A DNA stretch of 64,000 nt. It comes from Psammoneis japonica. Taxonomy: Eukaryota. The stretch is taken from the NCBI GenBank assembly GCA_008632985.1, contig QPGO01000001.1, positions 962,404 through 1,026,403 of the forward strand, written 5' to 3'. The number at the start of each line of letters is the position of its first letter. The stretch's first letter is position 1. The position numbers and the translations under genes were made by a program. Positions 1 to 32,734 of the stretch are shown here, piece by piece. The notes under the pieces are model-generated. The model saw only the letters and a list, made by a program, of their open reading frames with translations, did no database searches and had not been told where the DNA came from.

Positions 1-299
1 CAGAATGTCACAAGTGTTGACAAAGAGTGCACAGATGTGGCATCTGTGGCCTCACTTCATTTCAATGGAGATGTTGCTGCAACAGTTTGATGAACGGGAG
101 GTCCTCATGTTGGGCAGCATTGCCACATGGACGCAATTGAGCATTTCTTAAGTTGTGCAATTGATGACAAGGATGTGAAGCTGCTGATCACTGCCAAAAC
201 GGTTTGCCATCACACTGCAATGCAACATCAATGGAAGCAAACTTCCAAGCACACCTTCAGCACAGTGATCATTTGAGTGTTGACTCCAATCCCAAAAAG

Positions 300-2620
300 A
301 CTCTCAAAACTGTTGTGAAGGATGTGAAGCGGGGAGGTGCTGTCCGTTTGACAAGAGCTTTTGACTCCATTTCTGCTCAACTGCCATGTGACACCTCACA
401 GGATCATTGACTTTGACCAACCCCACAAGATGCCAAGACCAATTTTTGACAGCTTGTTTTGACCGGAGAAGTGGAGCATGACTGTCAAAGACTGAATGTC
501 CAAGGACACAGAGCCACCCCTGTTGGACGAGAGCACAGAGATGGATCTCATGAAATGGATCTGCAATTTGCACATGTCCTGCAGTGAGGAGGAAATTGTG
601 ATTGGTGACATCAATGTCAGGGGAGCTTCTTGCAATGACAAATGCCCATCCAACTGGTTGCCATGCACACAAGTGTGCAGGCCAGTTTTGGCATTTGCAA
701 ACTGGGAACAACTTTGGGGACAATGCAAACCCCTTGAACTGGCAAGTTGTCACAATGGCTCATCAGCAGTTGTTGCAGACATTGTGGCATTCAGAGGGAG
801 TCATTGGCATGACTGCCTCATTTGTGCCACAAATTTGGTTCTGCCCGGAACCTGGTGATGAGGACATTGCATCTTTTGCACCGGCAATGGCAGACTCCAT
901 CAACAAGGGAGTGTGTGATGAGCACAGCCTCTGAACAGTGCCTCCATGCACACACCATGTTGATGACAATGTGTGTGTGCAGATGTTTGAGTGCACCTCC
1001 CATGAATGCCAACGGCAAGCGCACTGTCACCATTCTGTGCACTCTGTTTGGGCATGCCCTTCACATGGTGGGAAGGGCCTTCGACTCTCGTGCACTAGCT
1101 GTTGGAATGCTTGAAAGCAAAAAGGACCAACTTTTCAAGGCATTGACCACATGGATTGAACATGTGACCGCCTGTGACTTTTGGATGCTGCGGGCCTTAA
1201 CAGGCTGCTCAAGAATCACACAAGATGTGTGCAATGGGTGCACCCACTCTTTTTCACAATGCAGAATGACACACAGGCGGCTTTCAAGCAACACCATCAC
1301 ATCATTCATGATTGGTGGAATGAGGATGTCAAGGCAAAAAGCAAACTCTACACCAATTGCCCAATTCCCAGTGCAAGCAAGTTGATCAAATTGTTGCCAA
1401 GGAGATGGCAGCCCCACTCTGGCACACGCGAGCCAAAATCCACTGTTAGATGAACTTTGGCATTCACTGCACTTGATTCAGAATTGCCTGCAGACTCGTC
1501 CCAAGTCATTCTTGGAATGCATTGGGTTTGTCATCCCAAGAGACCCAGATGTCCGGAGCTGCAGAGATGCAAACATGGATCATGGGGGGGTGGCTTTTGC
1601 CCAACACTCCATTTCTGGTTTGACATGGGATGGAGCCCCACATTTTGCATGGTGTCAGGAATGCTGGGCCATCCACAAAAAAGGGCATCTCCATGTCAAC
1701 CAACAACCAACTGGGGTTCCTCATTGTCACTCTCCAGTTTGCAGGTGCAATGACACGCATTCGAACTGTGACATGGGAGCAAGCAGAAAGCTGTTTTCTG
1801 GATGGGGTCTCCCCCTTGGCCTGTGATGCTCTCCAAATGCAACAACACTGGTTCAGTGAAGTGGAGTGACAAGACCTTCACTGCATTGCTCTTGGCACAG
1901 GCCCTCACTGCCCATTTTTGTGAACTCTTGAAAACTTTGAAGATTGGACAAGATGCTTGGCACCTTGAGGGGATGCTGAACAAATTGGTGGATGCCATCT
2001 TGTGCCAATCTGACTGAGCTCTTCCTCTCTCCACTCGTTGTGCTCAGCTGTGTCAGAAGTGGCCTGTGATGAGGAACTCTGGAGCCATTTTCTCTCAAGT
2101 CTAGAGCTGCTGCAGGGCCTCTTCTGTGCTCTGTTCTCAGTCTCAACAGCTGTTCTGGTTGCAATTCCCAAGAATTTAGGATGCTTTGTTTTCACGCCAA
2201 ATCCATTGCTTCCGGTTTGCCCATGACGTGAATTGGCACAAAGATGACCCTGGCATGACAATGCAGAACCTGCCGCTGACACATTGCCAATGCATGTTGG
2301 CAATCTACATGGTGCACCTTGCACCCAGAAGTGCATTGTTTTGCAAACAGATCAAACTTGATGGGATCAAAAAACACCTGTTTGCAGTCGCAACTTTTTG
2401 TGTGCTTCATTTCTGCAGAAAGAGTTGGGACATTTGCAAGAGCAACCCAATGGACAAAGAATTTTGCCCTGTCCTGAAGGCAAGAGCAACCCAATGGACA
2501 AAGAATTTTGCCCTGTTCTGAAACGGTGTTCAAGCAGATTTGGGATTGTGAAGATGCACCTGACCGTCGGGAGCCTGTGACACCCGAAACAACAATGGAG
2601 CAAATTTGTTGCAGGGAGGA
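300..2620 (+). mobile_element. Decayed tyrosine-recombinase (Ngaro/DIRS-like) retrotransposon fragment: RT/RNase H-like and N-terminal YR-like remnants
   Basis: Broken ORFs include 'QALTAHFCELLKTLKIGQDAWHLEGMLNKLVDAIL' (resembles the DIRS-type RNase H end H.pG..N..aDa) and 'MLAIYMVHLAPRSALFCKQIKLDGIKKHLFAVATF...DRREPVT' (resembles the N-terminal part of the YR ORF). Many stops; TA and CG depleted. Boundaries approximate. Confidence 0.45.
2436..2523. repeat. Tandem duplication, 44-bp period, 2 copies
   Basis: gcaagagcaacccaatggacaaagaattttgccctgt starts at both 2436 and 2480. Confidence 0.9.
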
Positions 2621-2699
2621 GATCATGATGGAAAAAGCACCAGATGGACTCCTGGCAATCCAAGGTGACTGGAGCCAGGGCAGTGTGGGGAACATGCCC

Positions 2700-4290
2700 A
2701 GTCCAAGAATGGGACAAACCTGCAGAAGCCTCAGCAGAACAAAAGGAAGGAGACTGAAGCGTTCTGTTCACCGATGTTTGGATCCAAACCCGGGACAGGA
2801 AGCATCAGACAGGGGTGGATGTTGCCTCCACTCCTCTCACCATTGTTGAGTTTGTGTGGGTCAAATTCTGCATCCAGAAAAATGGGGACAATGGGCAAGA
2901 GATCAAATTCAAGTGCGTGGATGTGCTGACAGCCATGTGCCAGTCTTGGTGCTGCACCCCATGGCTTGAGCGGTCTGCAGGTGGAGAGTCTTGAGAATCT
3001 CAATCTGAACATTTCCTCATGATTCACTTTCATGTCTTTGTGGAATGATGGGGTGGATTTTGAGCAGTGGTGCAGTGAGATGTTCATGTGAGAACATGCA
3101 AGAGCATTTGTTTTGTGACTCTGCACTGCCACAGACTCAATTGGACAAGAGATGGACAGTCCTGCAAATTTTGTTGGGAGAACAACAAAGCTGTTCTTGT
3201 TTTTTCACACACTGGGGACTCAGCAGCCAACACTGGAGGAAACAAGCTCTGCAAAATGATTCTTGATGTTCTCAAGGTTGTGTTCTGGGACAATGTGCAA
3301 ATGAGAGCATTCTTGGAGTTCATGTCAGCAGGGTGGCATTTGTGCTTGGGACCAATGGTGCAAAGTGCAAAGCAAGAAAATGAATCTCAGAGGACAATGA
3401 ATTTGCCCACAGCAGCAGAGAGTTGCTGGCATGCTGAAGGGCACAAGCATGTTGGGGAGTTGAGCATTGAGCATTGGACCAGTGGAAGAAGGATCAGCCC
3501 ACATGCTGCCATGCCCAGTGGATCACCTTGGGTGGTGCTTTCCTTGCTGAAAAGGAAGGAGACTGTGCCAACGTGTCCATGGACAATTGGGGTCACCCAA
3601 TGCTCACAAAAAATTGACGACAACCTGCCCCAGATGGCCCATTGTGTCTCACATTGTGCAGCATCAAGGTCCCATTCAATTCATTTGCTCTGCTGGAGGT
3701 GTCAACAAACAGAAAACCACAGCCATCTTCAACCTTGTGTTGCTCCCAGAGCATGTTCACATCATGTGAATCTCACTCTTGACATCAGCACAGAGCTGAT
3801 CCATGCCACAGGCTTCCTTGGCTTCAGCTCTGCAGCTTCTGATGGCTGCCCAGATTTTTGTCTGGCACCAAGAGTGCCTTTGCTGTCATTGCTTGGCAGG
3901 CTGCTATCCACAGAGGACAAGACTCATTTGCCAAACAGTTTGTGAACATGCGCAATTCTTCCCTGAGCAAGAACCCGCTGGCTTTGCTGTGGCAGAGCAG
4001 CCACCATGACTCCACACAGGCATCTGACCCGACAAGTCCAACACCACTCCTCAACATTTTTCTTGTGATGGTTTCTGTTGCACCACCTGTGATGACAACA
4101 TCTTGAAGCTCCTCCAGCAGTTTGCTGAATTTTTTGTGAAATTGGTCTGCAAGAATTCTTCAATCAGGACATTTTGAGTGCATTGCATCTCAAGATGGGG
4201 CCATTGGTTCTTTCATCAATGTCATCCAGTGTGCAAGCAGCCCACCTTTTTTAACATTCAGAAATGCATTTTGCTGCATCCCACAAGTTT
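2700..4290 (-). mobile_element. Decayed non-LTR retrotransposon RT fragment (CRE-like)
   Basis: ORF 3387..3623(-) 'LFSKESTTQGDPLGMAACGLILLPL' matches the RT motif S.eGv.QGDPL.m..Y.l.l.Pl, with Y replaced by C. Boundaries approximate. Confidence 0.5.
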
Positions 4291-4293
4291 CCT

Positions 4294-5916
4294 CATGGTG
4301 CCGTTCTGTTGAATGTCTTGGCATGCTGCTCTCTGGTGATTTTTCCCTTTGTGAGATGGACTCAAGATGGCTTTCAAGAAGTTGTTCCATCACAAGAATG
4401 AGCATGTTGTGCTTGACCACACTCCAAGTTACATCTGTTTGCCTGGCAAACAGGGTTCTGACATTCTTGGCTCTTTTTGCATTGTGACCCTGCAGCAAAA
4501 CTGCCATTTGGAGTGCAGCAAACCTCTCTGAGCTCCAATTTTATGTCATGGGAATTTCATTTTTGGACACATCAAGCTGATTTTGATCTTTGATCATCTG
4601 AGCAAGAGCAGACACATGAGGACTGAAATCATTGCAAACAATCGTGTTGACATCATTGTTGATTCAACGGACGCTTGTGTCATTTGTCAACGGCTGTGTG
4701 TTCTGCATGAAAGAGCAATTTCTTGGTCGAATGCATAATTTCCTTGTTCTAAAAAACCCGGGTGTGGCGCCCTGGCTGGATTTGGCGCCAAGACTGAACG
4801 ATTCACTGGCCGGGTCGCGCCACAGGATCGATGAAGGGCTTTTTGCCGAGCATTGCTCGGATTTGCCAATCCAGTGTCTCCCTGGGTAGTTCCTGTCCAG
4901 ATTGGTTTGGCTGTGGGACTTCAAGACCAGACAACAAAGAAGACAGATGTGGTCAAGCGTTGGCGGTTCGCAGTGGCACGTGAAAAATGAGCGGTGGAGG
5001 GTGCAGGCGTTCCATCGGAGACTGGTGCAGCCAGTGGAACACGATCTGCGAAGTTGCGAATCGATGATGCCACATTGCATCCACACATGCTCCTGCTGTG
5101 CACTCCAACTACTTGAAAATTACGGACACATCTGTGAGCTGTGTTGTCTGCGCGCTTGTTGTTGTCGACTCTTCCAATTTTGGCTCAGCCAATTGCCAGA
5201 AAAAATGAATGATCATCTGGCGGTTTTCTCCGACCTGCTTTCATCGTCTAATCAATGTTTTGGGAAGTGACCATATGGGAAGACAAGAAAATTCTCACTG
5301 TCATTGTCACAAACTGCCTGCAAACTTGAGCCTTTCGTAATTGTTGCGGTTGTCGTTTGTTTTTACGTCTCTTTTTCCTGCCTCATTCCCACATGTTCAC
5401 AGCAGAAAGTTGCACCCCAACGTCACGTTTTGCGCCACTGGCTGCCAGCCACTAGAGAGGTATTTTAACAGATGACACGGCATTCAATCGTGACGGGATG
5501 CACATGCTGATTCTCACCATGCCCTCGCCAGGCACCACGGCCAAACACCTCCAGCCGCCAGCTCCTTTCATTTCACATTGGAGAGACACCAGTCGGTCAT
5601 TCTCATTGCAACAAGCAACACCATGGTGTCAAACACAACTGGTTTCACAGCACCTGATGGTGCAAACCCCACAAGAGATTTTGGAGCTGAGTTCCGTAAA
5701 CTGTGCAAACCGGTTGACCCTGCCAACCATGGTGAGTTCGAGGGCACAGTTTCAGCTCTGATCCAGGAGGCATCTCTGGATGAATCCGAATGCACCAAGC
5801 GATCTGCTCCAGTGGCTGTTCAGCGTTGTCGTCAAGGGGGGAAGACGTTCATGCTTCATGCTGTCGCCAGCACGCTGGAGCACTGCAAAGGCAACAGGCT
5901 CCCATCAGATACGATG
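4294..5916 (+). repeat. Copy A of a ~1.62-kb direct duplication flanking the Penelope-like element; holds a 3'-truncated, mutated 5' end of the gene at 11647
   Basis: Aligns end to end with 10316-11940 (catggtgccgttctg... to ...gatacgatg); offset 6022-6024. Confidence 0.95.
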
Positions 5917-6354
5917 TTTTGAGTTTTTTTGTTTCACATTTTGAGTTTGTTTACTTGCGCACTTGCTGCAGTAGAGTGTGCTTCTACATCTGACAGCAGC
6001 AACATCAACTCGCTCTTTCTCCAACACCGTTGGAGTTTTTTGAGTTGATGATGCCTCACTCATTCTCATGCGCGCTTCGCGTGCATTCGAGATCTATGAT
6101 CCACACGATTAACTCACCATGCGCACCGCGCACGGGTGGATCTTTCTGATGCGGCTTTTTCAACGCCTGTAACGTCAGCTGCGACGACAGCCGTAGAAAA
6201 ATGCCGATTTCGAATTTTTTAGCTCGAAAAACAGCCGACAACACTGATGAAGCGAAAGCGAAAGCTCACATCATCGAGCTTTGTATGTCAGGCAACTCTC
6301 AACAGATTGCTGTTGCGCCAAAGGCTGTCAGTGCATTGGACAACCCCGAAAACA
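5917..6354 (+). repeat. 5' pseudo-LTR of the Penelope-like element
   Basis: Runs from ttttgagtttttttgtttcac to caaccccgaaaaca; repeated at offset 3963. Confidence 0.9.
6234..6293 (+). ncRNA. Type I hammerhead ribozyme (copy 1)
   Basis: GCC-GACA-ACA | CTGATGA | A-GC-GAAA-GC | GAAA | GCTC-acatcatc-GAGC | TT | TGT-a-TGTC-a-GGC. Conserved core plus stems I, II and III pair. Confidence 0.75.
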
Positions 6355-6374
6355 GTGTGCACAGACTTCCAACA

Positions 6375-7780
6375 ATGACTGCAGCCAGCGCGTCCGCTCC
6401 GACAACCCCACCTGCTCGCAACAGACGAAACAACGCAGCCGCGCGCACCGTGCGATTCGCTGCCGCAGCAGCAGCGACAATGACGGCGCCTGCGGCGCCA
6501 CAGATCTTGGCAGCTAACCAACGTAAGTTGGACAAACTAGCCCCTTGTCGCGAAGCGATCGAGACGCAGCCAACAGGATTCAAGGACATTGTCGAGTCAC
6601 TGGCCACTCGCATGATCACTCAGTGCGGGCTTGTAAAGAGCAGAAAGCTGAGTCCATCAGCTTTCCCCGGCACTGATGACAATCCACACATCCCCAAATG
6701 TTGCAGGCTCAATGTGAACCTCACACATGCGGACCGGCTCAACGATGATGCCACTGCCCAAGAGCTCGTCCAGGAGATGAAAGACCTGGTTGCATGCTTT
6801 GAAAAGGATGCAGCCAAACTGCACACAAGATGGCCTCACGTGAACTTGAGGTTGTGAAAACCAACCGAATACGAGAATTGGTCGAAGCTAGCCTTGTTCT
6901 CTTCCAATTCTACATTGACCATGTAAAAGAGTTCAAAGGCTCTACAGACCCAACAATGCGTCAACTCAGTGGAGTGCTGCTCATGCCCCACTTGTGCGAC
7001 GTGCTGCCATCGAGCTTCCTGAGAGACTGCCTTGAGACTTCTCCCAAAGAAATCATCAAGGAAGTTGAACGCCAGCTTCGACATGAAGGACCCTTCAGTC
7101 CCGAAGACAGCACCCCTCCCTCAACTCAAGAGAGCACCGAAGACGTGCACACACAAGAGGATGCCACGCGCACTCAGGCCGCACTGGCAGCAAACTTGAA
7201 CCCCCTGCTCGAAAGTGAACACGTGAACCACGAACTTTCAACAGGTGAGAAAGTTGTAAAAGAAGAAGTGTTCAAGGAAATGAAACAGTTCTATGAACAA
7301 GTCACCATGCAATTGCAACACGCCCTGGACAAAGAAGAACGATTGAAATCGGTCAACGCCAAGCCAGAGGCAAAGTGGAAACGCTGCAAGAAGGAACAAG
7401 CAGCTGACCTCGTCGCAACAGCTCTTGAAAACGAACCGACAGTTCAATCCCCCGCCCTCGACGAGTTGATCAACAAAAAGATTGACAAAAAAGTCGCAAG
7501 CCTCAAAAAGCTCCACAAGAAGGCAAACCGTTGGCAAAAAAACGACAAGGGCGGTCGGGAAGCCCCACCGGCACGAAAGAACGACGCAGCAAAAGACAAC
7601 GAAATGCAAAAAGGAAAAGGAAAGCGGAAACGCCAACCCCAAGCCTCGAAGACGAATGGGAAACCATCCGCCAAGAGACAAAAGAACGAAGCCAAGAACC
7701 GCCATGGAAAAAGAAAAGGGAATCACGGAGGACAGCACAGAGGCGAGCAAAGAGGCAAGAGAAGCAACAGGCGAAACTAG
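6375..7780 (+). pseudogene. ORF1 of the Penelope-like element (helical/coiled-coil with basic K/R-rich C-terminus), frameshifted near 6830
   Basis: ORFs 6201..6857 and 6830..7780 overlap; heptad-like E/K/Q-rich segment and basic tail; lies directly upstream of the RT. Confidence 0.6.
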
Positions 7781-9794
7781 AGGCGAAACTCCTCTACCAA
7801 CGCACCGAGCTCCCCATCAAAATTGCCGAGAAACAATCGGACCGCCACTGCGTCAGAATCCATGGATTCATGCCAAATCCTGACGCCCCCCTGTGGGAAA
7901 ACGCAGCAACGGCTGTCGGCAAGATGAAAGCTACGGCATGCTTCAACCGCCTGGACAACATGTCTTACCATGACCTCTGTACAAAGCTGCAACCACCCCC
8001 GGGTGCTGGATTACTGTCAGGACTTGGACACAAGTTTTGTGTGGAATCAAGCACCCCGTTCCCACACAACTGCTGAGGCGCACAACGCTTCCGACGAACC
8101 ATGCGTCTGCGGAACTTTGTCGAGAACTCCGAACTCGTAAACGACGAAGACGGATGCAACCCACACCCACACGTCCCCTCTGATTTCGACCCTCCACCGA
8201 TTGAAGACGGGACAATAGAACTTCGAATGATGGACTTTGCAAACAAGACAGACAGAGCCAGTCGAACAGCCAACCGCCAACGACCCCACTTTAATTTGAC
8301 GCCTCAGCAGCATCGAATGCTGCGAACATTGCAAAACGACAGACGATTCGTCGTGTGTCTTATGGACAAGAATCTTGGTCCAGCCATCATGGAGCGCGAA
8401 GTGTGCATGAAACGGGCCCTCAGCGACCACCTGCTCAACCAGAAGAACTGCCAACGCCACACGGAACAAGAAAAGAACACATTTGTGAGAGCAACTAGAA
8501 GACGCCTACGCAACGCATGCCACCTTGCAGCCGACAGCCTCTCTGAAGCGGAAAAAACTTACTTCGAAAGAAGTTTCAAAAAGAAACACCGCACACCACA
8601 GTTCTGCATCACTCCGAAAGTCCACAAAAAACCGTGGACGACACGACCAACAGTGAGCTGCATCAACAGTGAAAATGAAGTGTTTTCAAAATGGTTGGAT
8701 TTCAAAATGAAAGAACTTCTACCCCCATCGCGAACGTACATCCGAGACTCTCACCAAGTCCTCGCCGACTTACGATCACTTGGAAAGCTGCCACCAGATG
8801 CCAAGCCATTCACAGTCGATGCAGCAGGAATGTGTGCCAATGTCAACACCAACCATGCTCTGGAAACATTCCACCGGTGGTTCCTTGAGTGCCCCAATGA
8901 GATGCCAAAAAACTTCCCAGTTGACTTCTTCCTCACCGCACTGGAAATCGTCATGACAAGAAACATCACCCAGTTTGACGACACCTGCTGGCTCCAAATC
9001 GATGGCACAGCCATGGGAACCAGCACAGCCTGTGTGCACGCCACCATGCCAAGGCTCTCCACGAATGCCAAAGTGTGCTGACCCGATTCAACTTGAACCT
9101 GCCCCATTGTGGACGATTCACAGATGACGCACTCGGCGAATGGACAGGCGGTGAAGGTGAAACATGGGAGAAGTTCAAACATGAACTGAATGACTTCGGC
9201 ACCTTGGAATGGGAAACCTCCGAGCTCAGTGACCAAGTTGCATTTCTGGATCTCGATGTCAAGATTGGAGCAAACCGGTGTGTTGAAACAAGAACGCACC
9301 AGAAGGCCATGAACCTGTGCCTCTGCACACCCCCAAGCTCAGCACATCCACCTGGAGCACTGAGAAGCATTGTGCATGGAAACCTTCGGATGCATCGGGC
9401 ACAAAATCCGAACAACAAGGATCACCAAAAAACAGTGGCCCAGTTCTTCAACCGGCTGACAGCGCGAGGCCACAACAGAGAGCACCTCAAGAACCTCTTT
9501 GTGGATGCAGCCGCCACTGTCCACCGGAAAAAGGCCCCATGCTCCAATGTCGCTGACCCATCCAACACTCTTTTCTTTCACCAAGAGTGTCACCCACGCA
9601 GGATGGCTCGCACTGAAACAAGAAGAGCATGTGAAAAAACCTGCGAAGGGCACAGCGGGTTCAACCGGTTGGCAGTGGCGCACTCAAGACCCAAAAATCT
9701 AAGAGACGCCCTCACACGAACACCACCAAAGGAACCCAACGGGCAGCATGCTTCAGACATCATTAAAAAACTCTCTGATGCACCGGAGCTCTGA
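7700..9794 (+). pseudogene. Reverse transcriptase ORF of the Penelope-like element, broken near 8076 and 9075
   Basis: ORFs 7531..8076, 8101..9081 and 9075..9794 carry RT motifs in order (DKNLG, PKVHK, RP.VS, GTAMGT, RFxDD, FLD). Positions normally Tyr read Cys/His. Start approximate. Confidence 0.85.
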
Positions 9795-9879
9795 TTGGCG
9801 ACTCCGTCGCGACGAGTCACCTCCGGCAAAAAACTCAAACGGGCTGCCTGCCGCGCCACGGCGCCACGGCTTGTGCCCG

Positions 9880-10317
9880 TTTTGAGTTTTTTTGTTTCAC
9901 ATTTTGAGCTCATTCACTTGCGTGCTTGCTGCAGTAGAGTGTGCTTCTACATCTGACAGCAGCAACATCAACTCGCTCTTTCTCCAACACCATTGGAGTT
10001 TTTTGAGTTGATGATGCCCCGCTCATTCTCATGCGCGCTTCGCGCGCATTCGAGATCTGTGATCCACACGATTGACTCACCATGCGCACCGCGCACGGGT
10101 GGATCTTTCTGATGCGGCTTTTTCAACGCCTGTAACGTCAGCTGCGACGACAGCCGTAGAAAAATGCCGATTTCGAATTTTTTAGCTCGAAAAACAGCCG
10201 ACAACACTGATGAAGCGAAAGCGAAAGCTCACATCATCGAGCTTTGTATGTCAGGCAACTCTCAACAGATTGCTGTTACGCTGAAGGCTGTTAGCACATT
10301 GGACAACCCCGAAAACA
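9880..10317 (+). repeat. 3' pseudo-LTR of the Penelope-like element
   Basis: Direct repeat of 5917-6354. Confidence 0.9.
10197..10256 (+). ncRNA. Type I hammerhead ribozyme (copy 2)
   Basis: Identical to 6234-6293. Confidence 0.75.
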
Positions 10318-11940
10318 TGGTGCCGTTCTGTTGAATGTCTTGGCATGCTGCTCTCTGGTGATTTTTCCCTTTGTGAGATGTGGACTCAAGATGGCTTTCA
10401 AGAAGTTGTTCCATCACAAGAATGAGCATGTTGTGCTTGACCACACTCCAAGTTACATCTGTTTGCCTGGCAAACAGGGTTCTGACATTCTTGGCTCTTT
10501 TTGCATTGTGACCCTGCAGCAAAACTGCCATTTGGAGTGCAGCAAACCTCTCTGAGCTCCAATTTTGTGTCATGGGAATTTCATTTTTGGACACATCAAG
10601 CTGATTTTGATCTTTGATCATCTGAGCAAGAGCAGACATGTGAGGACTGAAATCATTGTAAACAATCGTGTTGACATCATTGTCGATTCAACGGACGCTT
10701 GTGCCATTTGTCAACGGCTGTGTGTTCCGCATGAAAGAGCAATTTCTTGGTCGAATGCATGATTTCCTTGTTCTAAAAAACCCGGGTGTGGCGCCCTGGC
10801 TGGATTTGGCGCCAAGACTGAACGATTTACTGGCCGGGTCGCGCCACAGGATCGATGAAGGGCTTTTTACCGAGCATTGCTCGGATTTGCCAATCTAGTG
10901 TCTCCCCAGGTAGTTCCTGTCCAGATTGGTTTGGCTGTGGGACTTCAAGACCAGACGACAAAGAAGACAGATGTGGTCAAGCGTTGGCGGTTCGCAGTGG
11001 CACGTGAAAAATGAGCGGTGGAGGGTGCAGGCGTTCCATCGGAGACTGGTGCAGCCAGTGGAACACGATCTGCGAAGTTGCGAATCGATGATGCCACATT
11101 GCATCCATACATGCTCCTACTGTGCACTCTAACTACTTGAAAATTACGGACATATCTATGAGCTGTGTTGTCTGCGCGCTTGTTGTTATCGACTCTTCCA
11201 ATTTTGGCTCAGCCAATTACCAGAAAAAATGAATGATCATCTGGCGGTTTTCTCCGACCTGCTTTCATCGTCTAATCAATGTTTTGGGAAGTGACCATAT
11301 AGGAAGACAAGAAAATTCTTATTATCATTATCATAAACTGCCTGCAAACTTGAGCCTTTCGTAATTATTGCGGTTATCGTTTGTTTTTACGTCTCTTTTT
11401 CCTGCCTCATTCCCACATGTTCACAGTGGAAAGTTGCATTTCAACGTCACGTTTTGCGCTACTAGCTACTAGCTACTAGAGAGGTATTTTAATAGATAAT
11501 ACGGTATTCAATCGTGACGGGATGCACATGCTGATTCTCACCATGCCCTCGCCAGGCGCCACGGCCAAACACCTCCAGCCGCCAGCTCCTTTCATTTCAC
11601 GTTGGAGAGACACCAGTCGGTCATTCTCATTACAACAAGCAACACCATGGTGTCAAACACAACTAGTTTTATAGTACCTGATGGTGCAAACCCCACAAGA
11701 GATTTTGGAGCTGAATTCCGTAAACTATGCAAACCGGTTAACCCTGTTAACCATGGCGAGTTCGAGGGCACAGTTTCAGCTCTGATCGAGGAGGCATCTC
11801 TGGATGAATCCGAATGCACCAAGCGATCTGCTCCAGTGGCTATTCAGCGTTGTCGTCGAGGGGGGAAGACGTTCATGCTTCATGCTGTCGCCAGTATGCT
11901 GGAGCGCTGCAAAGGTAATAGGCTCCCATTAGATACGATG
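10316..11940 (+). repeat. Copy A' of the ~1.62-kb duplication, continuous with the downstream gene
   Basis: Aligns with 4294-5916 and retains most TpA sites that copy A has lost. Confidence 0.95.
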
Positions 11941-13239
11941 ATCATCTTCGTATCCCTCAATAGCGTGACACCATACGCTCGGACCGAAGAGGCAGCCTGC
12001 GATGCCATCCTTTCTAGAATTGCGTGGGAGATCACCGATCGAACTGTGAAGTCCTTCATTAGTTTCAGACAAAAACACAGCGACTTTGGTGCTGTTGATG
12101 ACTGGCTGACGGACAAGAAAGTTATTCTCATCGTGGACGAGCTTAACATCATTCCTCACACCGCACCCCGGTACGATGATATGAGCGCACTTGTCGCCAA
12201 TATCGTCCAGCGAGTTGGATGCGCTTTGCTATACTCAACTCACAAACGTAGTGCAGCTGATTTGCTGAGAGGACGTGTCGCAAACGATTGTGATCTCACC
12301 TTGACTCGGCGCCGACACATTTGGAAACAAATTCCACGGATCGTGAATGAAAATTGTCTTCGTGGCCTTTACAAGGATCCGACGGAAGAGGCTTCTTTTT
12401 GGACTGCCGTCCTACGTGGGCGACTTCCTGCATTGGTCTTGCAAGATTCTGGAACGATTGCTGAATACACGGACGATATATTTCTGGACGATGATGGCAA
12501 AGACGAGCGCATCAAATGTCTCAAGGCTACTATTTCTGGTGACATTTCCTCCCTCGCCAACAACGCCCGCAATCTATTCCGAGCGTATTCTTACATGAGC
12601 GAAAGATTCACTCAAAGCAACTAAACACCTAGATATGCATGGCCTGCCTTCATGATTGCCCAAGAGAGAGTCCTGGGGAAAGACTACAGGCAGCTTACGG
12701 CCACTTTGCAGCACCCTAGTATTGATGAAGCGAAGGCCTTTGAAGCGCTTACCCAGCTGGCGATCCTTATGCGGTTGATGACTGGATTGGAACACGATCT
12801 TGTTCCTCGTAATAGCAAGGTCATTGCAGAGGCGGGTGTCGAGTCATTCGAAGCAACCGAGCTCTTCTATGTTGGGGTGGAGGCAACCACCGTACAACAA
12901 ATCGTTGCCTCCATTGATCGCCAGTTCGCTCGTCGGTGGAACGTCAAACTGGTGGCGGCGGTACCCCTCCTTGCTTCTTTTCCTGTTTATGATTTTTTTG
13001 TCTTTCACAGAATCTCTGACGAATGGAAGGCAGTGGCTGGCTATCAGTGCAAACAAGGCGGCAAATGCCCCAATGAAGACGCCGACGAAGGAATAGGTCT
13101 ATCTGTCTGGTTGGGAGGAAAATGCCGAAAGTATAAGAAAACACGGGGTGGCTTCTGTTGGGAGAAAGTAACCAAACGGATTGCTCGGTGTTTCAATTTC
13201 CGAAGCGCTCCCTCAAGATCCATCGACAGAATTCACTAA
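11647..13239 (+). pseudogene. P-loop NTPase plus C-terminal restriction-endonuclease-like domain (Crinkler-type architecture); in-frame TAA at 12622-12624
   Basis: Walker A-like 'RCRRGGKTFML', Walker B 'VILIVDELN', C-terminal 'YDFF...GYQCK' (D...QxK). ORFs 11602..12624 and 12652..13239 share a frame across one stop. Confidence 0.55.
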
Positions 13240-17453: not shown

Positions 17454-19357
17454 GGTCAAACCAATTCCAGATCTCACTGCATGGGTTGCAAACACACATC
17501 CAGTGCTGTCACCTTGCTGTTCTTGCACCAATGTTTTGCCTTGGTGCAGAAGTCAAAAATTGAGCAAAAAACTCATGTTCACAATGAAGCTGTGCACATG
17601 AATCCACCACGTCACTTTCAGTCATCAGCAATCTTTCACTGCAACATTGTCTGTCCATCCTCCCAAAGTCACCTTGATGCACCAACACACACCTTCACAC
17701 AAGCTGTCAAACATTGACCCAGTGTGCATTTGTCCAAGGAGGATGACAGTTGTGAACCATGCCACCCCACACCATGCCAACTGCTTCAGCGAGTGAAACC
17801 CATGGCTCTCATCATCCAACTCTGTCATCAAATGATCATTGTCATCCTTGAGCATGGGGCAATTGCTGCTGCTGACAGGCCCATCCTTGTGACATTCTCA
17901 GCTTTTGATCTTCTGTTTCTCTCATTGCACAAAACCAGTGCCTTCAGATTTCTTGTTGAGCCCGCACATGTCCAACACCTGCAGCACCTCTTTGGCCAAC
18001 TTGGAACAGTTTTCCACCCCCCAGTGAAAACTGCTGTTGTGGGTTGTCCAACATGCATCCATGTTCCTTTTGGCATGTCCCTTCCATTGGCAACACAGCC
18101 AACAGCTTGTTCCTCTCTTTCTCCTGGGTGTCATCAGCATCTGTGTTGAACCCATCCCCTTTTTTGGCACTTTCTTCTGGACAACACCACCACAGGATCC
18201 CTCCTCCACCATCTCAACAATGCTCACAAACCAATTGCAAACATCTTTAAGCACCTCTCCACTGTCTTGACAAATGAGCACCAGCTGCTTCCAAGCTTCA
18301 ACTGCTTGAATGTGTGAATGGACTCTCTCTCATTTTGCATCAAACAACATCAACTTGAGAATTTCCAGTGGCACGATTACGTCCCACTCCTTCATGACCC
18401 TTGCAAATCCAACTGTTCCTTCTTCAACCCTGTGTCAAACTGCCTTTGCACACTGTCACATGATTGTGCTAAATTCCTTTGCCTTCTGCATCTCATGGAT
18501 TGCTTCCTGTTTTAAATGGTGGCATGTTGTTCCCCCCAGATCACCTTGTCCTTTTCTGGTGGAGTCACGCTTGACGGAACATCCGGCTCCTTGGGTCAGT
18601 TCTGATCTTTCCTCAGAGACACCAGCATCTGCATTTCTGGTCCAAACATTCTTCCAATGTGCTCACTCATCTTCCTTGTGGTCTCTGTGAAACCATCTGC
18701 TTGTCAGTCCAACTTGGCAATGGCACCACACACCCACTCCTTCAAATCTACAGTGCTTTTGTGCTCAGTTGTTTCTTTGCCCACAGTTGGGTGTCTCCAG
18801 GAAACAACTCCACTGCCCTTTTGTCAGCAGACCCTTGCAGCTTTCTCTCAGCAAGGCCCCACAAGAGATCATCTCTTTGCCAGCCACTCCTTCATTGGAG
18901 CAACAAATCTGTCCCAACTCTTGTCAGTCCAGCAACCTTGAATGTCTTGTGCTCACACTGACCAAGTCTCATGTTCCCATCAACTCTCCAGCCTTTGTTC
19001 AGATTGCTGTCAACTTCCCAGCCTTCACTCAGATTTCCATCAACTTCCCAGCCTTTGTTTGGCTTCCTGTCAACTTCTCAGCCTTCACTCAGATTCCTGT
19101 TGACTTTCCAGCCTTTGTTCAGATTCCCCTTGACTTCACAGCCTTCACTTGGATTCATTCTTGGCTTCCCAGCCAGCCCTTTTTGACTTGTGTGTTGGAG
19201 CTTCATGGCTTTTTGACTTGTCTGCACATGGTCAAACAAATTCCAGATCTCACCACATGGGTTAAAAACACACATTGGGCACTGTCACCTTGCTGTTTGT
19301 CTCATGCCAACAACATGCCACTCTCGTGCAGAAGTCAACAAGTGAGCAAAAGACCCA
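17454..19357. repeat. Imperfect ~125-bp direct repeat pair (17454-17575 and 19230-19357)
   Basis: ggtcaaac.aattccagatctcac..catgggtt..aaacacacat....ctgtcaccttgctgtt...gtgcagaagtcaa.aa.tgagcaaaa present twice. Confidence 0.75.
18978..19156. repeat. 30-bp minisatellite, ~6 units
   Basis: Units resemble caacttcccagcctt(tgt/cac)tcagattcctgt and abut without unique spacers. Confidence 0.85.
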
Positions 19358-21642: not shown

Positions 21643-23688
21643 ATGCATTGGATCACCTGGATACTCTTTATAGCGTTGATGCAGGTTCAAGTGGACGCCC
21701 TCGTTGCACCCAGTGCGTCAAAAAGCAGCTTGCACCACGACTTTCCATTTGTTCATTCATCGATTGCAGCTATTCTCCGGTGCGAATCGGTAGTACCGGA
21801 CATCCAGCGCACAAACCAATGGCAAATCGACAAGTACACTCTCAGTATACGTATCAATACAGACCATCAAAATGATGCTTCTAAAGTCATTTGCAACACA
21901 AGTTTGATAGAGTTAGCGCACGCGTGTGACGACGCTGTCTTTTCTGAAAATCGTCCACAGCCCGTGTTTGGTGATGACGACTCATTCATGGAGGGATTGG
22001 TGACAATGGCAATGTCCGGTAGACAGAGCCATGTTCTATTGGCATCCTTGGTAGCAATGAATGGCTTGGAATCGGCAATTCGAGCATCAACCGGTCACGT
22101 CACGGGTCGAGCTCCACTGTTGAAACAAATGATTGCAAAGGTACCGCACGACTTTTCCTCCATCCTTGAGACATTATTGTTACCGACACCAGGTTTGAAT
22201 TTGAGGAATTTACTATGGCATGGGTGTATTTCAACTATTCCACGGCCATGGCTAGCCTTGATATTGGTATTGATTCATCAGCTTGAGACGGATTCAAACA
22301 ACATTCTCGGTGTTGAACACAAAACACCGACGATTCGCGTCAATCTCAAGGACTATGATCAGCTAAGGCCCATATTGTCACGTGGAGAGGTTCTCATGAT
22401 GGTTCCAGACAATGAATTTGCTAACTTGGTCAAAGCCTGGTTGTCTCCTTCTCATCACGACTTGTGGGACTTGGCCGTGGAGCTCATGATGGCCCACGAA
22501 AAGCCAGCTTGCCTCTTGTCTCTACTGAGTGTTTTGCTGGAGCACGGACTTCGACAAGAATGGTGCCGCGTCAATCATCAACCTTTGGATGCCATTGCTC
22601 GTCCGGGTGCCTACTTTGTTACCCTTGATGGCCATGGCCAACGACAACAGCACAATCTACTTTTGCATCCATACTTGTATCTTGACGATGGTTCGGAGAA
22701 GCCCAATTCTCTTGTACATGAATTGGGTGGACCAACAATTGCTCTGCTGAGCGATATGTATTGTTCATCTTGTGGCGGTCCCAATATTCGCGCCGGTCTA
22801 TCGCATGGCATGTTTGATGCGTACCTCGAGGCGGAGGTTTCAACAAGTCAGGACAGCAATAAGGGCAATGATTTTTTGTGGGATGTAGCTCGAGCCGTGT
22901 GTGTAGCACTCGAGGGAGCTGCAAAATCACCTTCGTTAGAGCTGCGTCGGTATAGACCAGTCTTTTCCTTTTCGGCTACTGTGAACCGAGATGCTCAAAA
23001 TACGCTGATCCAGCTGGAGCGCCTGTACGTTTATCAAACATCAGAGGGCTGTAGCCGCAATACTCCGACAAGCGCTGATGACGATCTATTGCATCTCGGT
23101 GTATCCATGGAGTCGCTGAAACAAGGATTCAAACAAGTTCTGTCCTTTTCTGGTAATGACTCTGATTGGGACGCGCAGGCTACTTTTTCGGAGCATGATT
23201 GCAATGTGAAACTAGCGTCTTGTACTGCTGCTCGAACTCTTCTTGGTGACGTGGCAACAGCTTCAGCTGCCTTTGTCAATATCTTGGAAGAGTCCTTTGC
23301 TGCGGACTCTGAACAAGCCGGAAAGCTAACTTCAAGTCGAAAGCTCAAACGACGAAAGAGACTTTGCGACTTGACGTCATTTGTGACGACAATGTATTCC
23401 TTCTTTGCATACGTAGCCTTGCTCTCCATGAAGCAACAAATGCAGCATGAGCAATCCGATGCTTCACTTTCTCCTTCACTGTTGCTCAAGGCGGTAGAAC
23501 GATCGAGAATGTGCGTTTCTACAATGGCAACCTTTGTGGTCACAAACAGCGACCGTGCAGTCAAAGCAGCAAGGGAATACAGTCGGGGCAATGCCGTTTA
23601 CACAATAGTACGGCATGCAAAGCTTAATCGCAATGTGGAAGATCTGATTGAACGTCAAGGAACCAAAGGAAACGAAAAGACACTCTAG
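21643..23688 (+). CDS. ERMARD/DUF4209-domain protein (681 aa), possible N-terminal signal peptide
   Basis: Long intact ORF; motifs 'GLNLRNLLWHG' and 'GPNIRAGLSHG' typical of ERMARD-like HEPN-related domains. Confidence 0.75.
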   Translation: MHWITWILFIALMQVQVDALVAPSASKSSLHHDFPFVHSSIAAILRCESVVPDIQRTNQWQIDKYTLSIRINTDHQNDASKVICNTSLIELAHACDDAVFSENRPQPVFGDDDSFMEGLVTMAMSGRQSHVLLASLVAMNGLESAIRASTGHVTGRAPLLKQMIAKVPHDFSSILETLLLPTPGLNLRNLLWHGCISTIPRPWLALILVLIHQLETDSNNILGVEHKTPTIRVNLKDYDQLRPILSRGEVLMMVPDNEFANLVKAWLSPSHHDLWDLAVELMMAHEKPACLLSLLSVLLEHGLRQEWCRVNHQPLDAIARPGAYFVTLDGHGQRQQHNLLLHPYLYLDDGSEKPNSLVHELGGPTIALLSDMYCSSCGGPNIRAGLSHGMFDAYLEAEVSTSQDSNKGNDFLWDVARAVCVALEGAAKSPSLELRRYRPVFSFSATVNRDAQNTLIQLERLYVYQTSEGCSRNTPTSADDDLLHLGVSMESLKQGFKQVLSFSGNDSDWDAQATFSEHDCNVKLASCTAARTLLGDVATASAAFVNILEESFAADSEQAGKLTSSRKLKRRKRLCDLTSFVTTMYSFFAYVALLSMKQQMQHEQSDASLSPSLLLKAVERSRMCVSTMATFVVTNSDRAVKAAREYSRGNAVYTIVRHAKLNRNVEDLIERQGTKGNEKTL

Positions 23689-24450
23689 GCGACGACTCTA
23701 CAAGAAGATGATCTGTCATAGTGCGCTCGGGATCCGACGGTCGGCGCCGATGATTAGCGCAAAGATTGGACTGAGATCGACAGTCCTCTACTACTTGTAA
23801 AAAGCCGGACATTGGGCAATAGCGGTCGCGGATTCAATGTGTTTAAAGGGAGGAACGAGGCAAAGTGCATGCTCGCAAAGAAGTGATTAGTCTAGGCACA
23901 ATGCCTCAACGACAATGGAAAGAGCTAGGTTGAGTTCATATGAGAACGTTGTGCGATCCCTCCGAGCTGATCTCAATTCCGTTTCTGTAGCCGTTCGCGG
24001 ACTATTACCCGTCGACCCTTAAGGAACACAGTTGCGAACTTTTGTATCGAGGAGGGGAAGCATCTTGTACAACCTGATTCTTTCATTCAGGAAACGTGTC
24101 GATTCGAAATAGAGTGGCCAAAGATTTTTCTGGTCTTCTTTTATGGGTCGGCAGTTGTGCTGCATAAGAACATGTTCTAAGAAGCAGAAATGTACCCAAC
24201 AGCCATAGAAAACTGCAAGGTTCACGAAATTTGGTGGTCTCTCCACTCCGCTGTTCGTCCCTTTATGGCATCGACCAACGAGTGCCCTGCAACCGATTTC
24301 TTCCTCCATCGCACCAAGAAGTATGGGATTCTTGTCAATGGTGTTTTAGAATTCTATTGTTGAATTCCTAGTCGCTGTTTGAAGACATGGTATCTCGACA
24401 CAAACAACCGGAATGAGAAAAGAGCTAACAAAAGCAATGCAATCGAATGT

Positions 24451-27400
24451 TTATTCTTGATTTAACGTAAATGCATATGCAGATCCCGAATCTGTTGCTT
24501 CGTTGGCATCCCTCCGAAACGCACCAATCCCGACTACAGTTCCATCTTCTGACGATGACACGGAATATCCAAATAAATCTAGTGCGGCCTCACCGTTTAA
24601 GCGATTGTTCCGCTGACTCCATTCCTTTTTGCTGGTGTTGCATTGAAAGGGGCGCCAACTCCTCACAGATTAAGTCGGTCCCACCACAGATTAAAAAAAT
24701 TTTAGGAATCTGCTTTTTCAGAATCTGCTTCTTCAACTTCTTCAATTGGCAAAAGGCCAATGAAATTCCACTCCCTATCGATTTAACCAGACAATCTTCT
24801 GTTGCAAGCAGCAAGATTCTACGTTACTGTATGCCAAGTTAGTAGCACCTTCGCCACGTGCAAATCCACCACCTGGGACGACCATGACCGATGCATCGAC
24901 ACATCGACGCGATGCGCCCCCTTCTGGTAGAATTAGGAGGAATAAGCTTTTCCATTAAATTCTCCATATTAACATTAATCTAACATGGTTCGACTGCGGC
25001 CTTAGCCTTTACTATAGATGACTTATGCCTTGCATTTGTGACCACACAACACAAGCATGATAAAACGATCCGCTGTGTTCTGCACATAAGATACGTAGAA
25101 GGGAGGAAAAAACGTGACTATTCAATCCACCATATTTTCATTAGCCATACACGGTTCTGATTTTGCCTTAGCCACCACTTTAGTCGCCTTATGATTTGTA
25201 TCTGTGACGAAACGACACAAGAACAGTACTTTTCACGACAAACAATCTGTTGTACTAGTATTCTGCACATAAGCTACCATGTTTCATCTTATTTTTATGT
25301 TATAGATCACATTCAATCAATATTATCGACTACATTGACTTGTGTCATGATTGATTGACAATTGCCGTCATAAAATGGATTCGAACGCGCCATTGCGTGT
25401 CTTGCCCATATTTTGTTTGTCGCGGTCGATTGCAGCCGGTGTTGTTATCGCGTGGGTCCGTACATACGTGGTTTGACGTAGAAATGTATGTTATAAGTTT
25501 CCGACCGCGGGGGAGGGGACGACGAGTCCCGCGAACGACAAGGAACCCACGCTGAGTCTTGGATTCCTATTTTACGACTAATCTGTGAGGGGACAAAATT
25601 AATCTGTCAGGGGTATTTTCCCCATTGAAAGATTGCAACTTGACCAGATAAAATCAAGCCAGCGGCGTTGTGAAAGGGACTTCCGACAGCAACGACGTTT
25701 CCATTTCCGCTTAGAGATACAGAAGAACCAAACCAATCACCTCCTTGTTGCGTAGTCAGAACTTCACCACGTGGTGCCCATGTCGAAGTTGTACGGTCGT
25801 GCTCAAAAACAAGAACTCTCCCGATTGACGTGTCGTCAGAAAACCTTCCTGGCGCACCCACTGCCATGACCAAACCCGTGTCGTCAAGAGAAACAGAATA
25901 GCGAAAATCCCCTTCACTGACTTGTCCGTCGATTAAATCACCCAATGGTCGCCACAAAGACGATGTAGGATTGTACTCGAAAGCCGACACTTCACCAGCA
26001 ATACGTCCTCCGCTATCATCCTTATATCGCCCTCCTACGGATACTATGTCTCCCGATATACTCAAAGAAACTGAAACTCCAAACTGGCTATTAGCGGCTT
26101 GTCCAATAAGCGACTGCCCAAGTTGTCTCCAGGATAACGTGCCGCGATTGTATATAAAAATTCGAACTGATCCAGAGATATTGCCGTTATCCGTGCTTTC
26201 CCTAGGAGCCCCGATGGCAACAATGTCACCCACATCCGAGAGAGACACCGAGAACCCCCCCGACTGATCATCAGCTGTTTGTGCAATGTCACTACCGAGC
26301 TGGACCCAACGTTGCAAGTCATCATTGTATTCGAACACTCGAGCATGACCTGCATCTTCTCCTCTACCGTCATTCCCTGGCCCGCCAACTGCTAGAATTG
26401 TGCCGTTACCATTCAAGGCTATCAGCAGCGGCATCTCCCACCAATTCTTGACCCATTTGTGTCCACTGCTGGGTTTCTTGATTGTATCGAACCACGGAAA
26501 CATAACCGGCATTGATTGAAGAATTATATTGAATCGCTCCAACCGCCATGATGGTGCCATCTCGAGACATGGAGACAGAGCTGCCAAAAAAGTCGTCTTC
26601 AGCCTTACCATTCAAAACTTGCCCAAGTGGTTGCCATGGCAGCCTGGTTTCAACCAAACTGTCAAAGATGTTATTTCCGGTGGCAGCACCTGCTGCTTTG
26701 AGGTCGCTTGTGTAGGCTGATCTTCTAGCGGCAGTTTTAAACGCCAAGGTTGAATATTAAGCTCGGTGTTCTTGGACGAATACGTCACGGCTTGCCTGTA
26801 AGTGACGTGCAAGGCGTCAGGCGCGTTGAAACTCGTCACAACTCTTGTTAAAGTTACCTCCAGGTCAGTCTCCACATCTTGTATGTCAAGAATAGTTTGC
26901 AAACGGCCGCGACTGTTGTAAAAGCTTTCGATGTAAAGCTTTGTCGCATTCGTCCATAACTCAGAGTCCAAACTATCAAAGGTTTCATTCACACCAACCA
27001 AACTCAAAACCACTCCAGCTGTTTCTTCCTTAACTGTGGTGGTGTGCTGGGTGTCGCCGCCACTGTCTTTTGTGATAGCTGACACTACTACTACAACGAG
27101 ACCAACCGCAAGAAGCAAAACTCCCAGAGCAAGAAAGCAATTGCGACGGCGCTTCCTTTTGTCCTCCTCATCATGAGCAACCTCTGCATGAGCGACAGGC
27201 ATTGAACGCCTGAGAAACATGTTCTCTTGTTCCAACCGGGCATAATCTTCATCAGTCGCACGCGCAAGTTGTGCCTCCAAGAGCACAGTGTCATCCTCAT
27301 GAGAAGGAGGAGCAATAGAGAATGGTGGCACAGAAAGCGCGTCTGAAATGGAGGGGGGGGGGTTCACTGTCGTCAACTTCTTCGCAACGTCGGACCTCGC

Positions 27401-27850
27401 CATCATGATTGACGGCAAACGCACCCGTTTCTGCTGCTTCTAGTTCTTCGAGTTGTCAACAGCATCATTCTCCTGTCCATGAGGCTGTGCTCCAGGAACT
27501 TGGCTTCGAGGAGTTGTGGACTTTTCTGCAGGCGCGTGTTTTTGCTTGAACTCACCAGCAGATGAAGAGATTGCCTGTTCTTGCGTGGGGAGTTGATGAC
27601 TGGATCGGTGCTTCTTCTTCTTCTTCTTTGCTTCTTGGTTCTGGCTGGAGGCAAAGGAATCTTTCATCCGAGACACGTGATGGTCATTTTCTTTCGATTT
27701 CCCCTTGATTTCTTTTTCTTCTTGGCACGAATGCTGCTGCTTCAGTTTCAGTGCCATCGACGTCGTCTCGTTCTCTCTTCTGCCACTCCCATCAAATGCC
27801 TCGTCATCATCCTTGCTGAGCCGTGTCAATCGATTGTCAGAGAGATTCAT
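24451..27850 (-). pseudogene. Single-pass membrane protein with FG-GAP-like beta-propeller repeats; frameshifted and interrupted by a MULE-like insertion
   Basis: TM segment 'CFLALGVLLLAVGLVVVVVSA'; repeats W.QLG..l.G....D.FG.SVSLS..G..vAVGAP spread over ORFs 26406..26747, 25607..26611 and 24451..24666. Confidence 0.75.
24650..25622. mobile_element. Non-autonomous Mutator-like (MULE) element, 973 bp, with 9-bp target-site duplication
   Basis: TSD CATTGAAAG at 24641-24649 and 25623-25631; GGG...CCC ends; imperfect ~45-bp TIRs with repeated ACAGATTA. Removal rejoins 'AIFQ' to 'CNTSKKEWSQ'. Confidence 0.85.
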
Positions 27851-32618: not shown

Positions 32619-32734
32619 AGCGGCAAGTGATAGCGATTACGTAGAATTAGGTTTAGGATGTAAAGTTTCACCTGATCATTTCTTATTAGTTGTCTCCGAT
32701 CTCGCAAGAGGGACTAGCGCGCACACGGTGTCAT

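Follow-up and report, generated by a model that had tools for sequence, protein, structure and literature searches.

Loss of TA dinucleotides from a diatom retroelement and from the duplicated host-gene fragment beside it

The locus of interest lies in a 64,000-nucleotide stretch of the genome of the diatom Psammoneis japonica (contig QPGO01000001.1 of assembly GCA_008632985.1; the whole stretch is hereafter called the window). It consists of a retroelement that is bounded by two 438 bp terminal direct repeats (L1 and L2) and flanked by two direct copies of a 1.6 kb segment of a host gene (X upstream, X' downstream). Comparison of the copies within each pair shows a process that acted (i) after insertion, (ii) on DNA, (iii) on both strands, and (iv) chiefly by changing the A:T pairs of TA to G:C, with a slower decay of CpG alongside.

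We propose the following course of events. A retroelement with 438 bp terminal direct repeats would have landed in the 5' portion of a diatom gene, accompanied by a 1.6 kb direct duplication of the target. Afterwards, the repeat-flanked and presumably silent DNA (L1, L2, the element body, X and distal X') would have been mutated: the A:T pair of 5'-TA-3' would have become G:C on either strand, yielding TG or CA, and each copy would have been struck independently, giving a reciprocal pattern. The gene-side duplicate, identical at its origin, would have been spared by its position or chromatin state (through distance from the repeats, or through protection of the active gene), and CpG in this DNA would have decayed at about one-tenth of the pace. 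Taken as a whole, this account of TA erasure at the DNA level, following retroelement insertion with target duplication, is in our judgement the best available and well supported.

Differences between the paired copies

The structure of the locus was established by self-comparison and a repeat search within this one 64-kb window. The parts follow one another in the nested order X, L1, internal region, L2, X' (Table 1). L1 and L2 lie 3963 bp apart and are 95.9% identical over 439 bp; X and X' (1622 and 1624 bp), which share the same orientation, are 95.9% identical over 1625 bp.

A gapless alignment of the two terminal repeats (438 bp) contains 18 mismatches, all 18 of which are transitions. 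Sixteen fall within pyrimidine-purine steps, and two outside. At five sites, one repeat carries TA where the other reads TG or CA, with L1 keeping the TA at three of these and L2 at two. The initial annotation had quoted examples of both directions, and these are present in the alignment: at 6095-6096/10058-10059 and 6110-6111/10073-10074 the TA of L1 stands opposite TG in L2, while L2 has TA at 10277-10278 (TG in L1) and at 10292-10293 (CA in L1). It had also described several sites with CA in one copy and TG in the other; there are four such opposite sites (5948-9, 5960-1, 6319-20 and 6332-3). A further three of the 18 differences set CG against TG or CA, and make up the share of CpG decay.

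The strength of this pattern was gauged by a chance test, in which 18 random transitions were placed on L1 in 100,000 simulations. The 16 observed differences within pyrimidine-purine steps compare with 9.1 expected (p=0.0007), and the four opposite TG/CA sites with 0.12 expected; none of the 100,000 simulations reached four. The pattern between L1 and L2 is beyond chance, and the weight falls on the opposite sites and the all-transition spectrum rather than on the four examples originally quoted. Each opposite site records two strikes on one dinucleotide in two copies, and marks that step as very mutable. CG is unlikely to have been the ancestral state at these sites because 27 CG sites are common to the two repeats and only three differ, such that double changes of CG should be rare. 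Of the TA sites, six are common and five are one-sided.

The second pair, X and X', offers a before-and-after comparison in host DNA. Among its 65 differences, 64 are transitions and 57 lie within pyrimidine-purine steps; in the L and X pairs together, 82 of 83 differences are transitions. The X/X' differences consist of 42 one-sided TA sites (TA in X' at 40, in X at two), three opposite TG/CA sites (six differences), nine differences involving CG (with CG in X' at eight), and eight of other kinds. This host flank was never reverse-transcribed, yet it carries the same signature as the terminal repeats.

In the gene-proximal half of the pair (X 5084-5915 versus X' 11108-11939), the 47 TA sites of X' read in X as 11 TA, 17 TG and 19 CA, and no site has TA in X only. 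These gene-proximal twins lie 6 kb apart; X has lost 36-37 TA and X' at most one (the opposite site at 5403-4/11427-8), and the same 832 bp now hold 11 TA in X and 47 in X'. In the distal half TA is scarce in both copies (five in X, seven in X') and the differences are reciprocal, with two versus four one-sided sites and two opposite sites. Most of this distal depletion is common to X and X' and, on this comparison, must predate the duplication, because only two opposite sites are found and independent saturation of some 40 ancestral TA should give far more. The edge of an old tract thus stood about 0.5 kb upstream of the gene already before the duplication, and the X/X' duplication itself is very young when measured by ordinary substitutions. 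Losses at the locus are largely private to one copy, in keeping with the independent loss that had first been claimed.

Strand, context and direction of the changes

TA has given way to TG and to CA in nearly equal numbers. At polarisable or opposite sites the ratio of TA>TG to TA>CA is 7:6 in the repeats, 23:25 in the flanks and 30:31 in total, and no strong bias towards the sense strand is found at the locus. The earlier contention that the mutations arose in the chromosome, after insertion and on both strands, rather than by one-strand editing of RNA or complementary DNA (cDNA), is borne out by this symmetry together with the spectrum of the host flank. Along X, the choice of strand is random (19 runs versus 18.9 expected, runs test); the test gives no sign in X of strand-coordinated clustering of the kind that a processive single-strand editor might produce, although saturation could mask clusters.

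The changes in X are narrowly concentrated. There are 40 one-sided TA losses and six other A:T>G:C changes, against one non-CpG C>T and one transversion. Within X 5084-5915, 36 of the 42 A:T>G:C changes are at TpA, five at ApA and one at GpA. Over the same 832-865 bp, 77% of TA has been lost and 13% of CG, the latter about 11 times more slowly per site, and 3.7% of ApA (5/136) has changed. The eight residual changes in X comprise the six A:T>G:C changes (five ApA, one GpA), one C>T and one transversion; even the background in X is dominated by the same chemistry. The six non-TpA changes are located at 5298, 5415-5417, 5691 and 5723, and the ApA secondary context, to which five of them belong, is used at about 1/40 of the TpA rate. 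The simplest account of the CpG loss is that methylated CpG has decayed in silenced repeats; the transposons of diatoms are known to be CpG-methylated.

Bases further out have a smaller influence. The edited A is followed by a pyrimidine at 23 of 36 sites, as against 12 of 36 for the strand left unedited (p=0.018); where the two strands differ in this respect, the 3' pyrimidine is on the edited strand in 17 of 23 cases. This is a weak effect (p about 0.02-0.03) in a small sample. Among the TA sites that survive in tracts of the whole window, TTAA is enriched 4.6-fold and CTAA/TTAG 2.9-fold, while ATAT is absent (0/135 versus 6.3% in islands) and ATAC/GTAT is depleted (0.10), with a chi-square p of 7e-21 over all these contexts; this test contrasts non-coding tracts with coding islands, and is a hint only.

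Other repeat pairs in the window served as controls. Three repeat pairs in tracts have transitions at 15/18, 6/6 and 23/30 of their differences, with four, one and six opposite sites, respectively; for two pairs in gene islands the figures are 13/33 and 133/251, with zero and two opposite sites. At 18968-19155, a deeply converted tract contains five 30-bp tandem units that differ mainly by opposite TG/CA sites (six in the pair 18968/19028).

The direction of these changes requires an outgroup. Comparison of an unpolarised pair cannot separate the gain of TA from its loss, and random transitions in DNA rich in TG and CA often make TA; the differences might thus be read in reverse, as C>T changes at CpA/TpG that created TA in the TA-rich copies, after the manner of repeat-induced point mutation (RIP). 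Protein homologs speak for loss. Where X and X' differ by an informative amino acid (12 positions), eight diatom homologs favour X' at 11 (one of these at the junction with L1) and X at none, with one tie. A similar result is obtained for the element, in which conserved tyrosines have become Cys or His: at the nine columns of the reverse transcriptase (RT) where at least 75% of nine homologs have Tyr, the window has Cys at five, His at two and Tyr at two, whereas Phe is kept at 9/10 and Pro at 12/14 columns conserved likewise. The TA-rich copy is also the ordinary one, its observed/expected ratio (o/e) for TA being 0.76 and its frame open over 368+204 codons, while the TA-poor state is abnormal (o/e 0.01-0.3). 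The element body has a TA o/e of 0.16, versus 0.43-1.02 (median ~0.81) in 80 related metagenome loci, these being the best-scoring 80 of 487 relatives and biased to intact copies. On these comparisons TA is ancestral, and TG/CA derived, in both X and the element body; C>T change of the RIP type is excluded because TA is ancestral. The reverse polarity is ruled out for these two parts by the protein outgroups, and for the locus as a whole we give it practically no credence.

For the terminal repeats themselves, the polarity of TA loss may be called partly shown. A partial outgroup for L2 comes from a public sequencing run whose contigs include other copies of the family (446 contigs, with 40 of 503 differences listed). 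Among the differences listed, positions 9909 and 9911 are T in 4/4 other-copy contigs and C in L2, and position 9941 is A in 2/2 other-copy contigs, where both repeats have TG.

Regional confinement and structure of the locus

Depletion of TA is regional. Its o/e is below 0.2 in 64 of the 128 500-bp segments of the window, and above 0.45 in 46 of 128, the latter on gene islands. The contrast between the twins X and X' bears on how the process is directed. Selection on the gene was considered as the cause of the sparing of X', and rejected: 32 of the 47 TA of X' are upstream of the frame (11108-11505), and X' has every one of the 11 TA that X retains. Unlike in RIP, duplication as such is not the targeting signal, because an identical gene-side duplicate was spared. 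We infer that targeting follows position or chromatin state rather than sequence duplication. Two readings fit equally well: (i) the process may spread about 0.8 kb from the repeats, X having the old tract on one side and L1 on the other, and the spared section of X' starting 790 bp from L2, or (ii) the active promoter and gene may be protected.

Table 1. Features of the locus, with positions counted from the first letter of the window
Feature	Position	Strand	Remarks
Old tract, deeply converted, to the left of the locus	1..4293	.	TA o/e 0.01-0.08; CG o/e 0.07-0.41; TG and CA o/e 1.6-2.0
X, upstream copy of the host segment (upstream region and first coding part of a diatom gene), truncated by L1	4294..5915	+	Gene-proximal half 5084-5915 lost 36/47 TA
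L1, terminal direct repeat (438 bp) on the left side of the retroelement	5916..6353	+	9 TA left
Internal region, broken reverse-transcriptase frame (four frame pieces and one in-frame stop)	6354..9878	+	TA o/e 0.16; CG o/e 0.84
L2, right 438-bp terminal direct repeat	9879..10316	+	8 TA left
X', distal part, TA-poor downstream host copy	10316..11107	+	7 TA, o/e 0.13; most loss common to X
X', gene-proximal part, TA-normal 'before' state	11108..11939	+	47 TA, o/e 0.76; at most 1 TA lost since duplication
Remainder of the host gene, continuous with X'	11940..13239	+	Diatom-conserved family, ~570 amino acids, function not assigned

X' leads unbroken into the open frame of the host gene (11518-13239). 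Homologs of this gene are collinear over the X'/gene boundary at up to 78% identity, the named ones being from Seminavis robusta, Nitzschia inconspicua and Bacillariaceae sp. The element is thus located within the 5' part of the gene, with a target duplication that covers the upstream region and roughly the first 100 codons; its downstream member is the working gene, and X a truncated fragment. Each junction has one or two shared bases, CA at L-end/X-start and G at X-end/L-start. At 1622/1624 bp, the flanking duplication far exceeds ordinary target-site duplications. Divergence outside pyrimidine-purine steps amounts to 8/1622 in X/X' and 2/438 in L1/L2, and because these residual values are equal, the terminal-repeat and flanking duplications probably arose in one event.

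Several side observations concern the duplicated segment and its surroundings. At 4568-4851, and at its twin in X', the summed contig depth is ~4-5x that of adjacent host DNA, a rise that suggests a small dispersed repeat within the duplicated host segment. One contig of the public run links 4710 to 10805, skipping 6094 bp, with 22 letters on its short side; it could represent an allele or copy that lacks the insertion, or a false join of X to X'. Further along, the gene islands at 21643-27439, 30304-34228, 37389-41712 and 45937-52133 have ordinary TA (o/e 0.5-0.7) and ordinary CG. They hold an S15-family peptidase, a porphobilinogen deaminase and a SPOUT methyltransferase, among others, and the tract edges are sharp at the 1-kb scale. 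For the porphobilinogen deaminase, the named relatives among the 120 listed are all diatoms, at 71-89% identity (Nitzschia 71%, others 85-89%); unnamed relatives reach 92%. A protein atlas returned bacterial clusters only for this enzyme, and it is the named relatives that mark the host genes as those of a diatom.

The internal frame of the element is broken into four pieces and has one in-frame stop, at 8077-8079. There are at least two frame breaks, near 6820 and 9049, at sites where contigs of other family copies differ by one base in length. This copy has private one-base insertions or deletions besides its TA changes, because the breaks coincide with these single-base length differences. 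The closest relatives are proteins of 570-580 amino acids from environmental assemblies, with at most 52-53% identity. The Pfam domain RVT_1 was detected in one distant homolog only among the four homologs scanned, and in none of the three close ones; a Pfam scan of eight window frames gave no real match, and a profile search against solved structures no relative below E=0.4. The motifs PKVHK..RPVVS, SMYTNID, GTAMGT, YIDD and FLDL are ones that we take to resemble those of Penelope and telomerase-related RTs.

Direct repeats 4.3-5.5 kb apart were found at five of ten related metagenome loci examined, often at contig ends. In four metagenome relatives, the repeats stand exactly at both contig ends, again 4.3-5.5 kb apart; such an arrangement would be expected if the relatives had been assembled from tandem or terminally repeated units. 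In another relative the two repeats agree fully over their inner 300 bp, but their outer 250 bp are only 74-88% alike.

The initial annotation had labelled the terminal repeats as pLTRs (pseudo-long terminal repeats, LTRs, in the sense of Penelope-like elements), a label that has not been adopted here. Terminal direct repeats or a partial tandem arrangement are a property of Penelope-like elements, and the 438-bp direct repeats agree with it. However, the GIY-YIG endonuclease domain of canonical members gave no Pfam match in the window frames or in the 570-580 amino-acid homologs, and neither did an integrase or a protease. The hammerhead ribozyme of the Penelope-like terminal repeat was not found either (Rfam, positions 4000-12500, E up to 1), although erosion of TA could have destroyed its motif. 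Filing the element as a Penelope-like or an LTR retrotransposon was dropped on these grounds, hence the neutral term 'terminal repeats'. Endonuclease-less Penelope-like members do exist (PMC8557442), and a hammerhead ribozyme has been reported in the terminal repeats of Penelope-like elements (PMC4209133). The Rfam search also returned two sub-threshold matches to mir-21, at 4561-4628 and 10585-10652, which are most likely due to chance.

Alternative explanations and known systems

A number of points weigh against the proposed erasure of TA after insertion. The evidence base is one locus and four small repeat pairs. Between L1 and L2, one-sided TA differences taken by themselves are not above chance (five observed versus 3.6 expected, p=0.29), because TG and CA are so abundant in this DNA that transitions often touch a potential TA. 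Of the reciprocal TA loss originally claimed for the repeats, the reciprocal pattern stands, as does the polarity in X and the element body; within the repeats 'loss' is established in part, from three outgroup positions in L2 among the differences listed (40 of 503), and we assume that the repeats were identical at insertion. TA density is 18-20/kb in the repeats (six common sites) versus 8/kb in the element body and 13/kb in X, and since the repeats retain more TA than either, the rate may be uneven or some sites resistant. The 1.6-kb duplication is without an established mechanism. Finally, an A>G change on one strand is indistinguishable by sequence from T>C on the other, and sequence can reveal neither an enzyme, nor a base modification, nor a chromatin mark.

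This last point opens the way to a passive explanation, in which TpA in silent chromatin is modified (e.g. as 5-hydroxymethyluracil, or by a modified adenine) and then mispairs or is mis-repaired to give T>C or A>G, with no dedicated deaminase or defence. TA loss and CpG loss coincide in these tracts, as would fit a chromatin domain bearing DNA modifications. However, the ApA secondary context (5/6 residual A:T>G:C) fits the neighbour order of adenosine deaminases, and a literature search of titles and the opening parts of abstracts found no TpA-directed modification in diatoms. We consider passive modification unlikely. An origin before insertion would have the terminal repeats unlike from the outset, either through differently edited RNAs or cDNAs or through two sources, with editing taking place during retrotransposition. 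The two ends of tandem or pseudo-LTR elements need not share one template, and other family copies do diverge widely from this one. Against this stand the spectrum of the host flank, which is the same; the residual divergence, which matches between the pairs; and the change of both strands in L (7 TG:6 CA), where RNA editing would be unidirectional. A difference before insertion is accordingly rated as very improbable.

Modified motifs cause systematic miscalls on some sequencing platforms, and errors of base-calling or polishing at a modified TpA motif could in principle mimic conversion. Yet contigs of the public run match the converted segments 4000-4323 and 10762-11107 exactly, with 0 other letters, although that run may be the assembly's own source. 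TA is opposed to CG at 0 aligned sites in L and X, whereas miscalls of mixed strand would yield such sites; L1 and L2 share their local context and differ in outcome; and the frame breaks of the element are typical of real decay. An artefact of this kind seems extremely improbable.

Under the proposed erasure of TA after insertion, the chemistry is most likely an enzymatic deamination of T-preceded adenine, which would be read as G at the next replication, and we infer a role in defence. Adenosine deaminases prefer 5' neighbours in the order U>A>C>G, and they fit the data because the ApA spill-over matches this preference. A wider proposal, which we regard as possible and advance tentatively, is that diatoms possess a dedicated genome-defence editor that deaminates adenine in chromosomal 5'-TA-3', and that is aimed by silent chromatin or nearness to repeats rather than by homology. 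It would be the same system as that of the chlorarachniophyte Bigelowiella natans, old and widespread in the SAR group (stramenopiles, alveolates and Rhizaria), and would strip TA, together with tyrosine and stop codons, out of any DNA in a repeat domain, host gene fragments included, in so short a time that almost no other substitutions arise.

The signature at the present locus matches the TpA-only hypermutation of B. natans, and gives an unusually clean record of it in a diatom. In mutation-accumulation lines of that species, 231 of 302 new mutations fell in two integrated viral regions, and 230 of these 231 were A:T>G:C, all at TpA (bioRxiv 10.64898/2026.01.13.699255). The rate was ~6e-7 per site per generation, ~1000-fold above background, and the process was active in some lines only; the targets were giant-virus and virophage DNA integrated in the genome, and there was a hint that transposon-type domains are affected too (same preprint). 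Mettrop et al. propose an ADAT2-like candidate, cite reports that ADAT2/3 edits DNA in amphioxus and trypanosomes, and note in their discussion that adenosine deaminases favour U upstream of the edited A (bioRxiv 10.64898/2026.01.13.699255). This preprint was the only related report returned by a search of titles and the opening parts of abstracts, with subscription journals mostly outside its range; no report of TpA hypermutation or of a RIP-like process in diatoms was among the results.

The likeness lies in (i) A:T>G:C change at TpA, giving TpG or CpA by strand and almost exclusively transitions, and (ii) restriction to foreign or silent regions in which TpA is scarce and CpA+TpG abundant, the rest of the genome being ordinary. 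The differences are that viral insertions are affected in B. natans, and here a retroelement with a duplicated piece of a host gene, in a diatom; that TA depletion is deeper here (o/e 0.01-0.3) than in the viral region of B. natans (0.45); that a rate was measured in culture lines there, and all that is said here comes from sequence; and that CpG loss accompanies TA loss here, as does spill-over to ApA and GpA. The preprint, in the text available to us, contains no occurrence of diatoms or CpG and does not report such spill-over.

If the proposed reading is true, a second algal lineage, distantly related to the first, converts TA to TG/CA in DNA that has been silenced, and a single-species curiosity becomes a candidate general mechanism of genome defence or mutation in marine protists. 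The values obtained here could serve as reference numbers for an assay (TA loss 77%, CG loss 13%, ApA 3.7%, strands equal). TA-poor tracts would also distort gene prediction, through scarce stop codons and Tyr>Cys/His replacement, as well as the dating of transposons by terminal-repeat divergence and dinucleotide-based binning.

Three better-known processes offer further comparison. Like the adenosine deaminases (ADAR, acting on double-stranded RNA, and ADAT2/3), the present process makes A>G changes, with T/U preferred on the 5' side and A second-best. Unlike ADAR, for which the preferred 3' neighbour is G, it would act on chromosomal DNA, on both strands, and with a preference for a 3' pyrimidine. 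CpG decay, the deamination of 5-methylcytosine in methylated repeats, likewise turns a palindromic pyrimidine-purine step into TG or CA on either strand in silenced repeats; it is present here as a second, slower process, with the CG of eight of nine CG differences kept in X' and so lost from X. The main process, however, acts on TA, with 13% of CG lost versus 77% of TA over 832 bp.

RIP, as known from Neurospora and other fungi, resembles the present case in that dense, dinucleotide-specific transitions on both strands inactivate integrated transposons, with clean genes adjoining. It converts C to T at CpA, and mutates both members of a duplication. RIP thus makes TpA from CpA and raises AT content, whereas the process described here destroys TpA; and where RIP mutates both duplicates, X' 11108-11939 has lost at most 1 of 48 TA, and its twin X 36-37. 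The X/X' pair is in this respect a natural experiment, one that tells a process directed by position or chromatin apart from one directed by homology, the central contrast with fungal RIP.

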